The notes beneath the pieces are model-generated. The model made no database searches. It saw only the letters and a program-made list of their open reading frames with translations, and was not told the origin of the DNA. From Escherichia phage JM10, in sequence record PP400777: a stretch of 64,000 bases of DNA. One strand, given 5' to 3'. The translations under genes and the position numbers were made by a program. This document shows, piece after piece, positions 5,295-35,388 of the stretch. Position 1 is the first letter of the stretch, and the number at the start of each line of letters is the position of its first letter.

Positions 5295-5577
5295 TAGCCT
5301 GACGTGTAGTAACCCACTGGATTTTAATTAACTTGTCATTATATGGTTGTCGTAGAATATCCCGAGATTTCTTAATAGCATATTCGTAAGCTTCGAAGTT
5401 GTTTTTAATTGCTGCTTCTTGAGCATGAGCATAAAGACGGTTTAGTTCAAAACGATTCTTTTTAAGAATCTTTTCGGATTTTTTACGTGCTTCAGCTTCA
5501 TTTTTCTTTTGGATTTCTTGTAGCATTTTAGCTACTGCATCTTCTGCTTCTTTATTTTCAATAATCTCGGTAGTCAT
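5254..5577 (-). CDS. hypothetical protein (47.1 position), Lys/Glu-rich
   Basis: 107-aa ORF; no recognisable motif. Confidence 0.5.
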   Translation of the reverse strand: MTTEIIENKEAEDAVAKMLQEIQKKNEAEARKKSEKILKKNRFELNRLYAHAQEAAIKNNFEAYEYAIKKSRDILRQPYNDKLIKIQWVTTRQAIEDIINGASSNKV

Positions 5578-5578
5578 A

Positions 5579-5794
5579 TTATCTCATTAAATTAAAATAA
5601 AAACGTCCATCCTCTTCAATACAGAACTCATACTCAACCGGAGTCCCATTTATCGAAAATGACACGTCATGTGGGTTCAAAGGGTCGATGTCAAAATTAA
5701 TTTTAAATTCACGACCCAACAATTTTACCAAATAAGGGATTGCTTCGTCAAAAGGTTCTTCTAAGTAGTTAGAGATGTCAATTGTCATCCTCAT
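5579..5794 (-). CDS. hypothetical small protein
   Basis: ORF-track ORF 5579..5872 overlaps the gene 55 3' end; trimmed to the internal ATG at 5794. No clear RBS. Confidence 0.3.
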
Positions 5795-6353
5795 ATAAAA
5801 AATCCAAACTAGGCGAATCGCTAACAACTTCCTTCTTTTCAGCCCCAGGAGCTTTATAAGCGGATTCTTCATAACGCGTCATTTTATCGTAGATGTCTTG
5901 AATAAACGTTTCATCTACCAACGCTACCATATCATCGTCATGACTGTCGTAGACATTATGAACGAAGTAACTATATTTCTTTGCAACTTCCTTACGTTCT
6001 TTTTTGATACGTTGGACAAAAGCATTAAAACAAGCTCGAGTTATGTATGCATGTGGGTTATTGTACTTAGTTTCGTCGAAATTATGAAGTCCCTTAATAG
6101 AGGCTTCAATACCATCTGCAATCATCTCCTGCTTCCAAGACTGGGTATATCCTGAAAAGTTGAAACGTTTGGACAGGCCTTCGGCGATAAGCATAATTGC
6201 TAAACCGATGGTATCATTCTGACGAATAATTTTGTTTGGGTCTTTATTATTTAAGAGCTCCTTTTTCCACTCGATTATAGCGGCGAGAAGCTCTTTATTA
6301 TTCACATAGTTATTTTTATGTTTTTGTTCAGTCATAAGTACCTCTTGGCTCAA
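5778..6353 (-). CDS. 55: late-transcription sigma factor gp55
   Basis: 191 aa colinear with my recollection of T4 gp55 (…[32 protein letters not shown]…). Confidence 0.9.
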
Positions 6354-29457: not shown

Positions 29458-29945
29458 CTCAAATTCCTGCATTCGGTAATAAAACGTTCAACTTCATTAT
29501 TCTTGGCTTTTATCTTGTCTTTATGTTCTTGTAAACTACTTTTAATAAGATTAATAATGATGCCTACAGTACCTCCACCAATAATACCACCAATAATACT
29601 TACAATAGTAGATGATAATAAGATAGCGATAATATCTAGTACAGCAAAGGCACTTACTTTAGTACTAAAAAACCATACCGACGGTACAAATATAATCCAT
29701 CCTGTTATCCATTGGCACTTATTGAAAAACTTTTCAAGCTCAGCTTGGGTTGTTCGTATTACTTCATCGATAGGTTGATATCCATTAATGTATCTGTTCA
29801 CGATAATACCTGCTGGTTTGTCGATTTTAAATGCTTGACAATGGTGTTTCACTAAGTAGGATGGACATCCTGTCCAATCTACTGAATAGTATGAAATACC
29901 TTCGTCGCCATCGCCCATGTTTGACCAGTGAATTTTCTGTATCAT
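29454..29945 (-). CDS. membrane protein with C-terminal E-x-F-I-x-E-C-R junction motif
   Basis: 163 aa; C-terminal hydrophobic and Gly-rich segment, ends …ERFITECRNLR. Confidence 0.5.
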   Translation of the reverse strand: MIQKIHWSNMGDGDEGISYYSVDWTGCPSYLVKHHCQAFKIDKPAGIIVNRYINGYQPIDEVIRTTQAELEKFFNKCQWITGWIIFVPSVWFFSTKVSAFAVLDIIAILLSSTIVSIIGGIIGGGTVGIIINLIKSSLQEHKDKIKAKNNEVERFITECRNLR

Positions 29946-30631
29946 TACCAGCCTTCCATAGGGAATTCCAGATAAACTTGGGCATTGACACGAATTTCAT
30001 TGGTAATCTTTTTAACTCGGTCTGTACTACGAGATACACGTCCGAACCAACGCCATCCGTTACTAATTGCACGAGAACCAGTGTGCCATGTTTGCCAATC
30101 AAACTGAAGAAGAGTACGATCTGGAGCTTCCCATTTCTCTAGTTCACCTTTTTCAATTTTTTCGAGGACTTCTTTGTGCCACTGACGATAGATAAGTTCG
30201 CCATCAGGAATCTGACTGAACTCTGCAGTTCCTGTTGCAAAATGAGTAGGACACACATCAGCGTTAACAAGACCAAGAATATGTTCAGACAAATAGCGAG
30301 GATTGTCATAGTCAGGTTGTCCTGCAGTAATAAAGTGTTGACCAACTGGAATATCAGGGCGAGGAACATCATCATGGTGATATCCAGGAATAGCAGGGTA
30401 CCAGCCAGGCATCAGCATGTGGACTCGTGAATCAAATACTACATCCGAGTCTTTCCAATCGTCAGGAAGATTTTGGATAAAGCTACGAGTAATTGGGCCG
30501 CCATTATCAAAAGCAAAATTTAAATCGCAGTTAAAGAACATAGGCTCGTTTTTAATCTGGTCGTTTTTAATCGCATGAGCAAAACCACCTACTGCACGAG
30601 CTTGACTATTAAACACTTTAGAACTATTCAT
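29945..30631 (-). CDS. hypothetical protein
   Basis: 228 aa; GAGGAAAA RBS; His/Asp-rich segment GYHHDDVP; no family assigned. Confidence 0.6.
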   Translation of the reverse strand: MNSSKVFNSQARAVGGFAHAIKNDQIKNEPMFFNCDLNFAFDNGGPITRSFIQNLPDDWKDSDVVFDSRVHMLMPGWYPAIPGYHHDDVPRPDIPVGQHFITAGQPDYDNPRYLSEHILGLVNADVCPTHFATGTAEFSQIPDGELIYRQWHKEVLEKIEKGELEKWEAPDRTLLQFDWQTWHTGSRAISNGWRWFGRVSRSTDRVKKITNEIRVNAQVYLEFPMEGW

Positions 30632-30632
30632 A

Positions 30633-30938
30633 TTATTTTCCTCGGCATTCTTTAATGAAATTTTCTAGATTGGTAGATTCAATAGCTTTTTTACGAGCTT
30701 CTGCGTGTTCTTCTTCGGACAATTTACATTTATAATTGACCCAGACATTATGGTCAAAACTAGTCGTGGCATATAATAACAAAGCTCCGACGAATAATAA
30801 AAACGGTGATAAGAATACAAAACCAGGAACACCATCCATACTGTAAGCCTTTTGTAATACTGCAACAGAAAGAGCTACGTAAAAAGGTGTTGCAAATATT
30901 GTAAAAAGACCGATTCGATTGGTTTCGCCTAATTTCAT
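30633..30938 (-). CDS. small membrane protein ending ENFIKECRGK
   Basis: 101 aa with two hydrophobic helices; GAGGAGAA RBS. Confidence 0.55.
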   Translation of the reverse strand: MKLGETNRIGLFTIFATPFYVALSVAVLQKAYSMDGVPGFVFLSPFLLFVGALLLYATTSFDHNVWVNYKCKLSEEEHAEARKKAIESTNLENFIKECRGK

Positions 30939-30957
30939 AATATTCTCCTCATGTTTT

Positions 30958-30996
30958 AATAGGACTACTATAACATAGTCCTATAATTGTGTAAAC
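30958..30996 (-). promoter_or_regulatory. PeSL-like early promoter + stem-loop cassette
   Basis: Minus strand GTTTAC-17-TTATAGT with inverted repeat TAGGACTA/TAGTCCTA. Confidence 0.45.
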
Positions 30997-31008
30997 AGTT
31001 TTGCGAAA

Positions 31009-31965
31009 TTATTTGAAAGGTTTTACAATATTGAAATTTTGTTTGAAACGTTTGACGTAATCATCATGTCCTAAGCTTTGGTACATACTTACTACTTTGC
31101 TGTAGTTTTCCCAGGCATACTCACGGAACCAACCGGAGGTTATGCTTGTACAGACTTTTTCCAATGCCATCATGAAACTGGCTTCAGGGTTAATTTTAAA
31201 GTCATTAGGAATCTGAGAACGTTCTAATGCTAGTACACATGATTCTTCATATACACCGGCCAATTTGACCATTTCTGGTAACGATTCGAACTTCTCGCGT
31301 GAGGTCATTACTTCAGAACCATCTTTCATGTAAAATGTATAAGCCGGACGGTCTGTTAGTGCAATGGCTTCGTGAATAGTATCGTGGTCATATGTATAGA
31401 TGTCATCTTTAAAGAACGCACTTTTAGAAGTGTCAAGAACCGGGTGAGCATAGTTCAAGGTTTCTTTCTGGCGTTTCAGCATAATTTCGGTAAGTTCATC
31501 GTTCAGTGTAACACCTTTACCACGAAGATACTGAATATGGTTCATAGTCTTTAAAAAGAATGGATTATTTTTCTTGAAACGATGAGACATCTTAATTGCA
31601 AGACATATCTCAGGAGTTGCCCAGTAAAACCCGTTCAAACGGTCTTTAGTCAAATTTTTCTTGGCGTATTTTAAAAGGTCATAAGAAGACGTGAAATCTT
31701 CAGGAGTGAGTTCACCGACTAATTCACGGACATTAGTGATTGCCGGAACAATATATGCTTCAAAATGAGTTTCGCGTCCATTATGGAAGCATTTGAAAAC
31801 TTGGACATCAGGGTTATCTTGGTGAACATATACACCCATCATTTGATTTTTGAATGCATTCCAAGAACATTGGTCCGCAATAAAGTCCCAATCACTATTT
31901 TTAATAGCGCTAGAATCAATAAGACCGTGATAGTGAAGTGCACGAGAACCAATAACCAACATCAT
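31009..31965 (-). CDS. hypothetical protein (weak nucleotidyltransferase-like N-terminus)
   Basis: 318 aa; N-terminal IGSRALHYHG…NSDWDF weakly resembles a GS…DxD motif. Confidence 0.55.
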   Translation of the reverse strand: MMLVIGSRALHYHGLIDSSAIKNSDWDFIADQCSWNAFKNQMMGVYVHQDNPDVQVFKCFHNGRETHFEAYIVPAITNVRELVGELTPEDFTSSYDLLKYAKKNLTKDRLNGFYWATPEICLAIKMSHRFKKNNPFFLKTMNHIQYLRGKGVTLNDELTEIMLKRQKETLNYAHPVLDTSKSAFFKDDIYTYDHDTIHEAIALTDRPAYTFYMKDGSEVMTSREKFESLPEMVKLAGVYEESCVLALERSQIPNDFKINPEASFMMALEKVCTSITSGWFREYAWENYSKVVSMYQSLGHDDYVKRFKQNFNIVKPFK

Positions 31966-32033
31966 AATATTTTCCTCGGATTAATTCATTAACTTAAATT
32001 TCACGACATGCGATATCATATTCATCCCAGAGG

Positions 32034-32246
32034 TCATCGTGTGAAGCCTCTACCAATGGAACGATTGTACCCGTTTATGTCTTCATTATAAGGGCAAATT
32101 GTACAGTGCGCATCTTCGAATCGGATGCCTTTATGTTCAGATTTTTTATAACGCATATCGAATATCTTTGCAAACTTTTCACGAGTAATGGTTTTAGCAA
32201 CCACTTTGGTTCCGATACTTTCGTAATAAATCATTGTGGACTCCAT
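32034..32246 (-). CDS. hypothetical small protein
   Basis: 70-aa ORF with CTIC motif. Confidence 0.4.
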   Translation of the reverse strand: MESTMIYYESIGTKVVAKTITREKFAKIFDMRYKKSEHKGIRFEDAHCTICPYNEDINGYNRSIGRGFTR

Positions 32247-32251
32247 TTAAT

Positions 32252-32293
32252 TTGATAGAACTACTATAACATAGCCCTATCTTGTTGTAAACT
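32252..32293 (-). promoter_or_regulatory. PeSL-like early promoter + stem-loop cassette
   Basis: Minus strand GTTTAC-17-TTATAGTAGTTCTATCAA. Confidence 0.45.
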
Positions 32294-32296
32294 GTT

Positions 32297-32494
32297 TTAG
32301 CAAGAATAACTAGATGATACCCAGCCTTGAACAGTAATACTATTATTTGATAACGAGATTGCGTCCTGGAGATTCAGACCTGCGTTATCTTCAATCCATA
32401 ATATAACTTCTTCGCGTTCTTCTGTTGCAATTTGGAACAGGTTTTCCAGAGCAGCTACTGCCGTACGTACAGCGCAATCTAATTCACGAGACAT
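32297..32494 (-). CDS. small protein, W-V-S-S-S-x-x-C C-terminal family (member 3)
   Basis: 65 aa ending QGWVSSSYSC. Confidence 0.45.
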   Translation of the reverse strand: MSRELDCAVRTAVAALENLFQIATEEREEVILWIEDNAGLNLQDAISLSNNSITVQGWVSSSYSC

Positions 32495-32503
32495 ATGATT
32501 TCC

Positions 32504-32776
32504 TTAACAAGTGTGAGAAGACGCGACCCAACCACCAGTTTCGAGGCTAAGGTTGTAGTCGTATTGGTAAACGTCAGCCCATTCAGCATAGCCGTTTTTT
32601 GTACAACGTTCAAGATCGGCTTTAAGATGTCCGGGTGAATGATAGGTTCCACCCATACCATAAGCTGGGTACAAGTCGAATGTTGTGTTTTGTTTATCAG
32701 CAATTTCTTTGGCAGCCTCAATAGCTGCATAGATTTTTGCTACAGCTTCAGCCAGTTCGGTTTGTTCTTTAGACAT
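32504..32776 (-). CDS. small protein, W-V-S-S-S-x-x-C C-terminal family (member 2)
   Basis: 90 aa ending GGWVASSHTC; AAGGAA RBS. Confidence 0.5.
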   Translation of the reverse strand: MSKEQTELAEAVAKIYAAIEAAKEIADKQNTTFDLYPAYGMGGTYHSPGHLKADLERCTKNGYAEWADVYQYDYNLSLETGGWVASSHTC

Positions 32777-32785
32777 AATGATTCC

Positions 32786-33091
32786 TTAGCACAACGCAGA
32801 AGACGAAACCCAAGCACCTTCAGTAATAACGTAACCATTACCTTCACGCTTAACATCGCCACCATTATTTTCAATTTCATTTTTCATCCACTGGGATACG
32901 ATTTCACCCTTAGGATAATAAGTACGACCGCTACCATAATCACCTACAGAAAATGATACGGCATATTGGTCTGCGATCTTTGTTGCTTCTTCTTCGATAC
33001 GTTCAGCTTGATTCAGAAGTTTATAAATTGCATCTGAAGCGGATTTGGCATCATTAAACTCTGGTACTTTAATTTCAATAATCTTACTCAT
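32786..33091 (-). CDS. small protein, W-V-S-S-S-x-x-C C-terminal family (member 1)
   Basis: 101 aa ending GAWVSSSALC; its ATG overlaps the upstream stop. Confidence 0.5.
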   Translation of the reverse strand: MSKIIEIKVPEFNDAKSASDAIYKLLNQAERIEEEATKIADQYAVSFSVGDYGSGRTYYPKGEIVSQWMKNEIENNGGDVKREGNGYVITEGAWVSSSALC

Positions 33092-33447
33092 TTTCTACAT
33101 TCCTTAATAAAGTTTTCGATTGTTTCATTTTCACGTCTAGCTAGGAGTTCATTATAACTAATCATTTGAGAAGCGTAAACCTTTTTATTTTTCTTGTTAT
33201 GGTTTATAAAATCGTAGTAAAAATAGACTACAGTACAAAATGATGCGATGGATGCAAAGGCTTGGGTATACCGTAAGTCCTGCCATTGGTCTGTGAATCC
33301 ACCAGTGTTCCCTATAAATCCTAACACAACGCCGTCAATAAGAAATCCAACTAATCCAAAGGCAAATCCCATGCCAATACTCATAATAAAAATTAGAATG
33401 TTCTCACCAAGAGAAGGCCATACGGTTAAGAGTTGAGGCTTTTGCAT
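33088..33447 (-). CDS. membrane protein ending ENFIKECRK
   Basis: 119 aa with two or three hydrophobic helices. Confidence 0.5.
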   Translation of the reverse strand: MQKPQLLTVWPSLGENILIFIMSIGMGFAFGLVGFLIDGVVLGFIGNTGGFTDQWQDLRYTQAFASIASFCTVVYFYYDFINHNKKNKKVYASQMISYNELLARRENETIENFIKECRK

Positions 33448-33821
33448 CTTATTTCCTTAACGAATTCCATAGCTTCTTCATATTCATACTTTTTAACAGC
33501 TTCATCATACTGAGCTTGGGCTTTTGCGCACTGAACTTTCCATTCTCTTAATCGGGCTCTGTGATGACGACCTTGGTGCCAATATCCTACCCAATTAATA
33601 GGCATTAATAAAAATGGTACAATAAACGACCCGGCTATAATAAGTAAAAACACTGCATCAGACGATATAACTTCACTAGAATCTAAAACAGCTCCTATAA
33701 TCATAAAGATTAAAAATGCTAAAGCTAAAATAGGGCCAAATAGTACTTCATTTGGAATTAATTTACGCTTGTATTCATACGCCAAGGGTTTAATTGGCAT
33801 GTACAGGGTTGGCTTTGACAT
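33426..33821 (-). CDS. membrane protein
   Basis: Start uncertain (ATG at 33821 or 33800); the ORF-track start is TTG inside the upstream gene. Confidence 0.4.
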   Translation of the reverse strand: MSKPTLYMPIKPLAYEYKRKLIPNEVLFGPILALAFLIFMIIGAVLDSSEVISSDAVFLLIIAGSFIVPFLLMPINWVGYWHQGRHHRARLREWKVQCAKAQAQYDEAVKKYEYEEAMEFVKEIRCKSLNS

Positions 33822-34386
33822 ATTCTCTACATTCCATAATAAATTGCTCAAGGATTAAATTGTTAGTGAAATTAGGACTAACAACCATGGTTTCATAAAG
33901 CGCATCAATAGCACTTAAAGCATCAACTCTTTTAAGCAAAGGCTTGCCTTCATACATAGTTTCAGAATCGATGATTAACGTAAAGTAATATTTTTTATTA
34001 TCGACTAGAACTTCTGTATCGATATAAAACATATTAGACCTCAGAAGCTTATCTCTAAAACCATAATAATCTTCAGAGCGTTCGCTGATATATTCCAATT
34101 CAGTGTTTAAACAACAAACAGACCATGTAGGAGCAACGAAATCAGTGAATCTAATATCATGGTCTGCAACTAGTTTAGCAATAGCTCCGATATCATGAAT
34201 CATAATACCTGGGGCTAATAAAGATTTTCGGTGATTTGCATATTCAGTTGTCTCATAAGAAGACGACCAGTACCATTTACGTCCAGTTGCAACATATCGT
34301 AATGAATCAACTAAAGACGTAGGTGGATTTACCTTATCTCGGAACTCTTCGAACATTGAGTCAATATCATTATTTTGGTTTCGCAT
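33790..34386 (-). CDS. hypothetical protein ending …FIMECREYVKANPVHAN
   Basis: 198 aa from the ATG with a strong AAAGGAG RBS. Confidence 0.55.
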   Translation of the reverse strand: MRNQNNDIDSMFEEFRDKVNPPTSLVDSLRYVATGRKWYWSSSYETTEYANHRKSLLAPGIMIHDIGAIAKLVADHDIRFTDFVAPTWSVCCLNTELEYISERSEDYYGFRDKLLRSNMFYIDTEVLVDNKKYYFTLIIDSETMYEGKPLLKRVDALSAIDALYETMVVSPNFTNNLILEQFIMECREYVKANPVHAN

Positions 34387-34435
34387 GTTAACTCCTTTAT
34401 TATCCAAAAGGAGGACCGGAGTCCTCCGTATTATT

Positions 34436-35029
34436 TTATTTCAAAGAGTTAATATATTCTTGTACATCAGCAGAAGTGGTTTCTACACCAGCTGGAGTGC
34501 CATTGAACGTTTCAACACGAGTCAGAGTGTCTTCGATATCAACCTTAGTCAGTGCAGCGATTTCAATTACATCATCAGCCGTAGAGATACCAAGGGCATT
34601 GGCTGCTCGAGTTTCACGAATGTATTCGAGTTTGATTGCCAGGTTCTGACGAGCATCGTCAAGTTCAACCACCTTACGAGCAATTTCAATTCGCATAGCG
34701 GCATACCCATCAGCTTTTGTATTAAGTTGTTCGGCAGTTCTACGATACAGAAGACCAAGCTTAGCATGCATGGTAACATCTTGTCCTTCAGCCAGGAGCT
34801 TACGAATTTCACGTTCCTTAGAAGCGGCTTGCTTGTTCTTTTCATTAACAAGTTCGCGAATACGTTTTTCTTCATTAATAGATTTAACAGAAGCCGTTTT
34901 TAGTTCTTTGATTTGGGTAATCAACTTATCTGCAGCTGCGTTATACTGTTCTTCGACAGTCAGATTTTTAGCCATAGCAGTACCAAGTTTAGTGCGGATG
35001 AATTCGACAAGTTTCTTCAGTGTGTTCAT
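34436..35029 (-). CDS. coiled-coil protein
   Basis: 197 aa from the ATG with AAAGGT RBS; heptad-rich; shares its promoter/5'UTR with the gene at 6715..7047. Confidence 0.55.
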
Positions 35030-35342: not shown

Positions 35343-35388
35343 TTTTGATAGGACTACTATAACATAAACTTACTTAGATGTAAATTAT
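35343..35388 (-). promoter_or_regulatory. PeSL-like early promoter + stem-loop cassette
   Basis: Minus strand ATTTAC-17-TTATAGTAGTCCTATCAA. Confidence 0.4.

Follow-up and report, generated by a model that had tools for sequence, protein, structure and literature searches.

Small phage proteins with a conserved C-terminal cysteine tail and the linkage of their genes to a DUF7277-DUF7275 gene in Escherichia phage JM10 and other phages

The 64,000-nucleotide (nt) stretch of Escherichia phage JM10 DNA analysed here (record PP400777, hereafter the window) is that of an RB69-like Mosigvirus and carries an array of three small genes, the products of which all end in a Ser-containing tail with cysteine as the last residue. 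Cys-tail gene 1 (32786..33091, minus strand) encodes a protein of 101 amino acids (aa) and corresponds to RB69 ORF138c plus ORF139c; its translated tail is WVSSSALC (32789..32812, minus strand). Gene 2 (32504..32776, minus strand; RB69 ORF137c) encodes a 90-aa protein of the YGMGGTY subtype with the translated tail WVASSHTC (32507..32530, minus strand). Gene 3 (32297..32494, minus strand; RB69 ORF136c) encodes a 65-aa protein, which lacks the YGxGxTY motif and ends in translation with WVSSSYSC (32300..32323, minus strand). Translation of the open reading frames (ORFs) bears out the preliminary description of this DNA, which had placed three adjacent genes of these sizes, with Cys-ended tails, at these positions. 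The start codon of gene 1 overlaps the stop codon of e.3 (ATGA), genes 2 and 3 follow after 9-nt spacers, and the three genes are translationally coupled on the minus strand. In a six-frame scan, the Cys-tail was absent from every other ORF of the window. The region from 31000 to 35000 shares 97-98% identity with RB69, F27 and approximately 140 other phages, and the RB69 counterparts of all three Cys-tail genes are annotated as hypothetical.

Proteins 1 and 2 match phrog_899 (E 1.8e-22 and 3.5e-19, respectively) and align with each other (BLASTP E 2e-4). Protein 3 matches phrog_4882 (E 4.8e-36), and its detectable similarity to proteins 1 and 2 is confined to the ~17 C-terminal residues (hhalign probability 91%, E 1e-6). 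The earlier view of the three genes as tandem paralogs thus holds for the 101- and 90-aa proteins, whereas the 65-aa protein is related to them through the tail only. Both PHROG families are listed under 'unknown function', and no Pfam, NCBIfam, PADLOC or PDB sequence matches were obtained for the three small proteins. The profile searches that had been proposed for them therefore assigned them to no characterised family.

The RB69 record (NC_004928, 5786-6092) splits the 101-aa gene into ORF138c and ORF139c, with a 71-aa product ending in ...SQWYEK. Since F27 and more than 100 other relatives carry the intact 101-aa gene, the RB69 reference probably contains a frameshift or a sequencing error at this position.

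The tail is kept in relatives, with 189 out of 200 distinct proteins ending exactly in Cys. Five further relatives have one extra residue beyond the Cys; among the other six are truncated or frameshifted products as well as two variant C-termini. Most relatives are only ~25-45% identical to the 101-aa protein of the window in the family alignment. When positions are counted backwards from the terminal Cys (position 0), the 189 Cys-ending proteins feature W at -7 in 187 cases, S at -4 in 188, S at -3 in 186 and one of S, A or P at -5 in 186. The two residues preceding the terminal Cys are highly variable. The consensus tail is G-x-W-x-[S/A/P]-S-S-x-x-Cys-COOH. Of the tail G-W-V-S-S-S-x-x-C, which had been described as invariant, W(-7), S(-4), S(-3) and C(0) withstood this comparison, whereas G and V vary and the first Ser may be replaced by Ala or Pro. 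The conservation of the tail far exceeds that of the hydrophobic core, and subtypes that differ in their bodies have retained it. Tail-like units of the form W-x(1-2)-S-S-x(0-2)-C were also found inside the acidic linker of some members (9 compared to 0.1 in shuffled sequences), and the looser internal pattern W-x-x-S-[SDE] occurs 36 times, with 1.5 occurrences expected from shuffles.

A tail repeated in neighbouring genes could in principle be a chance similarity or a DNA- or RNA-level element, such as a ribosome-binding cassette or a recombination scar. In two of the three genes, the Shine-Dalgarno sequence of the next gene indeed overlaps the stop codon, but the overlap does not extend beyond the stop codon (TAAGGAA), and no gene start follows the third gene. 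The Ser codons of the three window tails differ (TCG TCT TCT; GCG TCT TCT; TCA TCT AGT). Related loci provided 94 distinct tail contexts, in which Ser(-4) and Ser(-3) are each encoded by TCN as well as AGY codons and the Cys by TGC as well as TGT. The tail is also kept across 710 sequence clusters, and no motif was found on the opposite strand in 80 loci (both data sets are described below). An origin at the level of DNA or of the ribosome-binding site is thus refuted by codon usage and family-wide conservation, and we give it practically no chance. Because the Ser codons are mixed and the third gene lacks a downstream start, the tail is, as judged from sequence, conserved at the protein level, in agreement with the preliminary description.

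The 101-aa protein was detected by tblastn in 397 phage records, with Escherichia, Aeromonas, Enterobacter, Klebsiella, Serratia and Yersinia phages, a jumbo Erwinia phage and a Pseudomonas phage among them. A profile search of 1.84 billion representatives (E<=1e-3) yielded at least 710 clusters at 50% identity. The small protein was not found in species-representative bacterial genomes, and the family occurs almost exclusively in phages. Members of the family are acidic (median pI 4.4), and the terminal Cys is the sole Cys in 104 of the 189 Cys-ending proteins. Most members contain a second motif in the middle of the protein, either F-S-x-G-D-Y-G-S-G-R-T-Y-Y-P or A-Y-G-M-G-G-T-Y-Y-P. Conservation within the family is highest in this Gly-rich loop and in the Ser-rich tail. 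Different subtypes can be distinguished. The 'GFWFxSSMSC' subtype is homologous over its full length (hhalign probability 96.7%), the 65-aa subtype matches the family over the last 17 columns only (hhalign probability 91%), and an 'ADG[S/K]IWxxSSC' subtype with a shorter W-to-C spacing occurs in other phages. The YG loop is missing from the 65-aa and other subtypes, which keep the tail, and the tail is the sole element common to at least four subtypes (phrog_899, 65-aa, 'GFWFxSSMSC' and 'ADGxIWxxSSC').

Downstream of the array, on the same strand, lies a gene for a 318-aa protein with an N-terminal DUF7277 and a helical C-terminal DUF7275 domain (31009..31965, minus strand; RB69 ORF134c; Pfam E 1.4e-27 and 4.8e-79), hereafter the partner. 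The linkage of Cys-tail genes to this one conserved, enzyme-like gene is a new observation. It was seen on two distant metagenomic contigs with family members, on which a DUF7277+DUF7275 gene follows shortly downstream, as does ORF 31009-31965 in the window. Among all loci fetched with the small protein, tblastn detected a partner homologue on the same strand, at a distance of 0.2-1.7 kb downstream, wherever the flanking sequence was long enough. Conversely, a search starting from the DUF7275 protein provided 80 viral contigs, on which the opposite strand served as control. On 73 of them, 1-6 Cys-tail ORFs are located on the strand of the partner, nearly all within ~2.5 kb upstream, and one further locus has a variant tail; Cys-tail ORFs on the opposite strand were found in none of the 80 loci. 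The array of the window, which ends at 32297 and is followed by the partner at 31009-31965, fits this family-wide arrangement.

The linkage persists in unrelated lineages, with different neighbours and with changed or inverted gene order. Upstream of the partner, we found four to five Cys-tail genes in Otagovirus phiPsa315, three in Phapecoctavirus Ro121c4YLVW, two each in the Acinetobacter Lazarusvirus Abraxas and in Variovorax phage V45v66, and one in Salmonella jumbo phage PHA46. They lie downstream of it in Stenotrophomonas phage Mendera (Menderavirus, two to three genes) and in Xanthomonas phage X1 (two genes). The small proteins diverge somewhat faster than the partner; in the same loci they are, for example, 46-63% identical, compared to 65-75% for the partner. 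All seven 'genome' matches to the partner are contigs of metagenome-assembled genomes and probably derive from phages; tail genes are also present on five of them. Taken together, the linkage between array and partner is near-obligate.

The partner matches 2,747 database proteins (clusters at 90% identity), none of which is functionally named, and is present in 733 phage records, in which two depositors label it a nucleotidyltransferase. Approximately 50 of its residues are invariant. In the N-terminal domain, G6 S7, D25 x D27 and E69 are invariant in 16 and in 62 sequences, giving a GS...DxD...E signature. Invariant in the C-terminal domain are K125, H128, H174, D193-H194-D195, H198, E240-E241, E248-R249 and the segment K-V-C272-T-S-I-T-S-G-W-F-R. 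Nucleotidyltransferases of the Pol-beta type are characterised by the motif hG[GS], followed about 10-17 residues on by Dh[DE]h and by a third carboxylate on a later strand. The GS..DxD..E residues of the partner match this motif. The AlphaFold model (predicted local distance difference test score, pLDDT, 92.6) has the order strand-[GS]-helix-strand[DxD]-helix-three strands, with E69 on the last strand, and then an all-helical domain. The order of the predicted secondary structure elements (E2-5, H6-12, E25-31, H32-41, E45-47, E54-61 and E64-73) is compatible with that of the Pol-beta core at the level of topology. Weak matches to RNase L and HisJ were not significant. Based on the motif, the predicted topology and the depositor labels, and with profile searches that gave no result in its favour (see below), we infer that the partner may be a Pol-beta-type nucleotidyltransferase.

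One residue of the C-terminal domain tracks with the occurrence of neighbouring tail genes. Cys-tail neighbours were found for 76 of the 83 homologues with Cys272, whereas none of four distant homologues consisting of DUF7275 only (KVP40, Vibrio K460, Streptomyces Wakanda and Gordonia Miskis), in which Cys272 is replaced by Ile or Val, has such a neighbour. This relation is suggestive.

Distant DUF7275 homologues without Cys272 are flanked by one to three copies of another uncharacterised small-protein family with the pattern GGEGxG...VFxI...YF(R/K)KxGxYxSYxG...EVxP, which has no Pfam match. Its members were found at L041:2360-2656 (KVP40.0036), L046:3991-4356, L040:3600-4797, L039:4648-4959 and 5493-5846, and L042:4217-4612 (numbers with L denote our loci). 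A homology of this 'GGEG...YxSYxG' family to the Cys-tail proteins was rejected (hhalign probability 0.1%); the family may represent an alternative set of partners for the DUF7275 enzyme family. Outside the T4-like coliphages, the DUF7275 gene is often located a few kb from genes of the nicotinamide adenine dinucleotide (NAD)- or RNA-repair type, namely Sir2, nicotinamide phosphoribosyltransferase, MazG, polynucleotide kinase, RNA ligase 2 and a NinI-like phosphatase (Ro121c4YLVW, L036; KVP40, L041; L034; Vibrio K460, L046; DSS3_VP1, L042; PHA46, L044). This may be a coincidence of the early region or a functional hint.

Sites resembling T4 early promoters (TTTACA, 17 nt, TATAGT or TATAAT; consensus matches only) are located on the minus strand at 35384, 35099, 32291 and 30995. 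The third of them (32263..32291, minus strand; TTTACA, 17-nt spacer, TG, TATAGT; likewise a consensus match only) lies between the array and the downstream genes. The late-promoter sequence TATAAATA was not found between 27411 and 39813. Due to this absence, a late role in the virion is not favoured, and the promoter context rather argues for early expression of the genes. Between e.6 and e.5 (34410-34427), a perfect 7-bp G+C-rich hairpin (GGAGGAC CGGA GTCCTCC) precedes a run of T on the minus strand, much as in an intrinsic terminator. This terminator-like element is located inside the early transcription unit, upstream of the array.

The explanation that we favour, tentatively, is that the tail is a shared handle that allows the DUF7277-DUF7275 protein to bind or modify a whole set of early phage proteins. 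The bodies of these small proteins diversify and their copy number varies, while the C-terminal tail is kept. The partner enzyme would recognise the common tail and act on or through it, for example by nucleotidylylation or another modification of the Ser hydroxyls or of the terminal Cys thiol, or by thiol chemistry involving its invariant Cys272. Early in infection, the small proteins would then use their variable bodies to engage different host targets. Both the physical interaction and the modification are deduced here and would take place between the partner and the tails. In a more specific version, which is possible but doubtful, the genes would constitute a hitherto undescribed phage protein-modification system, in which the partner covalently modifies the Ser/Cys tails of the small early protein array. 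Such a reaction could be an O- or S-nucleotidylylation, or could lead to a derived Ser-Cys thioether or a thiol relay with Cys272, and the tail-modified effectors with their different bodies would hit host or defence targets. The idea of the preliminary description that the tail is a shared determinant for modification, targeting or binding is strengthened by the occurrence of the tail across subtypes, by the internal tail units and by the linkage to an enzyme-like gene.

Several points weigh against a direct action of the partner on the tails. Profile searches with the partner yielded only DUF7275 and DUF7277 in Pfam and no PDB match, and a comparison with AadA, the sequence of which was checked against PDB 7uy4, was negative (hhalign probability 0.06%). 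The correlation with Cys272 stems from a single distant clade, with observations that are phylogenetically non-independent. No tail gene was present within 4 kb in six or seven of the 80 partner loci, and the linkage as such could reflect a shared pathway instead of direct contact. In addition, the AlphaFold model of the 101-aa protein, a small alpha/beta domain (pLDDT 90.8) without a match to any solved fold in a PDB fold search, puts the tail within the fold, with a strand at residues 93-96 and a helical turn at 97-100. The conservation of the tail may therefore be partly structural, and the tail may not be freely accessible.

If this is taken further, the tail would be mainly structural and its linkage to the partner incidental. 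The Trp would anchor the last strand (W94-S96 in the model), the serines would cap the terminal helical turn (S97-L100), and all genes would travel in a shared mobile early-gene cassette. The absence of the whole ORF132c-ORF139c block from the T4 e.2/e.3 junction is consistent with a single cassette in T4-like phages. However, a structural role does not easily account for a tail conserved so far above the hydrophobic core and across different bodies. The terminal Cys has no obvious structural role and is modelled at low confidence (pLDDT 64 in the final 10-residue confidence block, which contains residue 101 only), and the linkage extends to unrelated lineages with other neighbours and inverted order. 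We consider this explanation unlikely.

A modest chance is given to the view that the small proteins are autonomous binders or sponges, with the tail and the Gly-rich YG(M/S)GG(R)TY loop forming a ligand site or a site for binding a host protein. The ligand could be, for example, a phosphate-bearing nucleotide or a metal, and the neighbouring enzyme would belong to the same pathway, making or degrading the ligand without contacting the small proteins. The compact, confidently predicted domain with an integrated tail is in line with this, as is the fact that precisely the loop and the tail are most conserved. Acidic, phage-restricted proteins in an early-type context with variable copy number are moreover typical of host takeover or counter-defence. 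On the other hand, the 65-aa and other subtypes dispense with the YG loop and still keep the tail, a last-residue Cys and internal tail repeats are not features of known nucleotide sponges, and no similarity to a known sponge or a solved fold was found.

The predicted activity of the partner also allows a toxin-regulator arrangement, in which a potentially toxic nucleotidyltransferase (compare AbiEii/MenT and MntA-type enzymes) would be controlled by the small proteins as tail-binding inhibitors, activators or specificity adaptors. The position of the small genes directly upstream of the enzyme-like gene, on the same strand and in an operon-like manner, agrees with such a role, and so do the GS..DxD..E signature and the helical C-terminal domain. 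Neither a DUF1814 nor a HEPN nor an antitoxin family match was obtained, though, and copy numbers of 0-6 with several diverged paralogues per phage are unusual for a 1:1 antitoxin. The module is found in lytic phages and not in bacterial chromosomes, and the window has a separate promoter-like site in the interval from the array to the partner. We therefore give this arrangement only a small chance.

Of the known systems, MNT-HEPN (MntA/HepT, type VII toxin-antitoxin) consists of a minimal Pol-beta-type nucleotidyltransferase that AMPylates a small partner protein at a conserved residue in its C-terminal region. The likeness, an enzyme-like gene adjoining a small partner gene, is an analogy and not evidence of membership. 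The Cys-tail proteins have no HEPN fold match, no Rx4-6H motif (three sequences) and no PADLOC or Pfam match; the candidate acceptors are the Ser and Cys residues of the tail instead of Tyr, the module is a phage module with 1-6 diverged partner genes, and no sequence-profile link of the partner to MNT families was obtained. AbiE/MenAT systems (DUF1814) likewise encode, behind a small gene, a protein of ~300 aa that combines a GS..DxD core at the N-terminus with a helical domain at the C-terminus. Here, however, there is no DUF1814/AbiEii match, the upstream genes are not COG5340-type or MenA antitoxins, and the context is that of a phage, not of a bacterium. GlnD is a uridylyltransferase with a nucleotidyltransferase domain and a His/Asp-rich domain, which reversibly nucleotidylylates the ~12-kDa signalling protein PII. 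The partner resembles it in the combination of a predicted nucleotidyltransferase domain with a second His/Asp-rich domain and in having a small protein as the proposed target, but no homology to GlnD, the HD domain or PII was found, and its YDHDxIH recalls the HD motif only superficially.

In lanthipeptides such as epidermin, S/T-x-x-C at the extreme C-terminus is the pattern of a lanthionine or aminovinyl-cysteine (AviCys) ring. The Cys-tail family features this spacing, S(-3)-x-x-C(0), in 186 of the 189 members, which in itself is a coincidence of motifs only. The tail could accordingly be thought to mature in the manner of ribosomally synthesised and post-translationally modified peptides, with Ser activated and eliminated to dehydroalanine, which the terminal Cys would capture. 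The resulting cross-linked C-terminus would carry a lanthionine-type S-x-x-C ring or, if decarboxylation follows, a ring of the AviCys type. W-x-S-S-x-C units with their Ser and Cys residues are repeated inside some members, and the adjacent enzyme might activate hydroxyl groups. We nevertheless regard this route as very unlikely. No LanB, LanM, LanKC, LanD or radical-SAM homologue is part of the module, and the neighbouring genes have no match to the Pfam families of LanB/C/M/KC/L, LanD or radical-SAM enzymes. The would-be substrates are predicted folded proteins of ~10 kDa without a leader/core organisation, and the two residues before the Cys are highly variable. The features of ubiquitin-like proteins and sulfur carriers (ThiS, MoaD, Ubl), i.e. 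a beta-grasp fold, a C-terminal Gly-Gly and an E1-like partner, were not found either.

The array is located in a compartment that it shares with the hyperplastic early regions of T4-type phages (e to tRNA cluster), in which small, coupled early-type genes vary in content between relatives. The Cys-tail block differs from these in being a defined, widely conserved module, which also occurs outside Straboviridae and is missing from the syntenic site of T4. In T4 (NC_000866, 3653-4320), e.2 and e.3 abut, and the ORF132c-139c block is missing. The ~3.1-kb block (window 29945-33091), which comprises the partner, the Cys-tail array and two other ORFs, is thus an insertion relative to T4.

A small ORF resembling RB69 ORF135c (32034..32246, minus strand), located between the array and the partner gene, is frameshifted and does not encode a Cys-tail protein. 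At 32060-32080 (about 32071), it has GGG, compared to GG in RB69 and F27. Due to the extra G, the product ends in ...NGYNRSIGRGFTR (70 aa) instead of ...NGTIVPLVEASHDDLWDEYDIACREI (83 aa, same start codon); the RB69 record annotates a 79-aa ORF135c from a downstream ATG. Either the frameshift is genuine or the G run was misread during sequencing. The possibility that ORF135c is a degenerate Cys-tail gene was rejected, as the intact RB69 version ends in ...DIACREI. Its end, DEYDIACREI, faintly recalls an E-x-F-[IV]-x-E-C-R-like segment that four other genes on the minus strand have in common at or near the C-terminus, namely e.3 (33088-33447), e.4 (33426-33851), e.5 (33790-34407) and ORF133c (30633-30938). 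The segments (ENFIKECRK, EFVKEIRCK, EQFIMECREY and ENFIKECRGK) represent the other cassette named in the preliminary description, and at least e.3 and e.4 are predicted membrane proteins. ORF132c (29945-30631, minus strand) encodes 228 aa without a Pfam match. Across T4-like phages of Escherichia, Klebsiella, Enterobacter and Aeromonas, its identity is 75-96%, whereas the neighbouring DUF7275 protein reaches only 45-75% in those loci. This unusually high identity suggests that ORF132c is under strong constraint or has recently spread horizontally.

Neither the small proteins nor DUF7275/DUF7277 nor the tail motif were covered by any literature that we found. The absence of the block from T4 at the syntenic site may explain why the genes have escaped study. 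On the basis of sequence comparisons, the module appears to fall outside every described kind of system, and the function discussed here is a proposal. A near-invariant Cys as the last residue after W-x-S-S-S, in proteins that otherwise diversify and duplicate, points to a specific C-terminal chemistry or recognition. The family spans T4-like, rV5-like, Otagovirus, Xanthomonas, Stenotrophomonas, Acinetobacter and jumbo phages, and its linkage to the partner turns the role of small accessory phage genes into a two-component question in a tractable E. coli phage. If a modification of the tail exists, it would be a new type of post-translational modification and possibly a portable pair of tag and enzyme.

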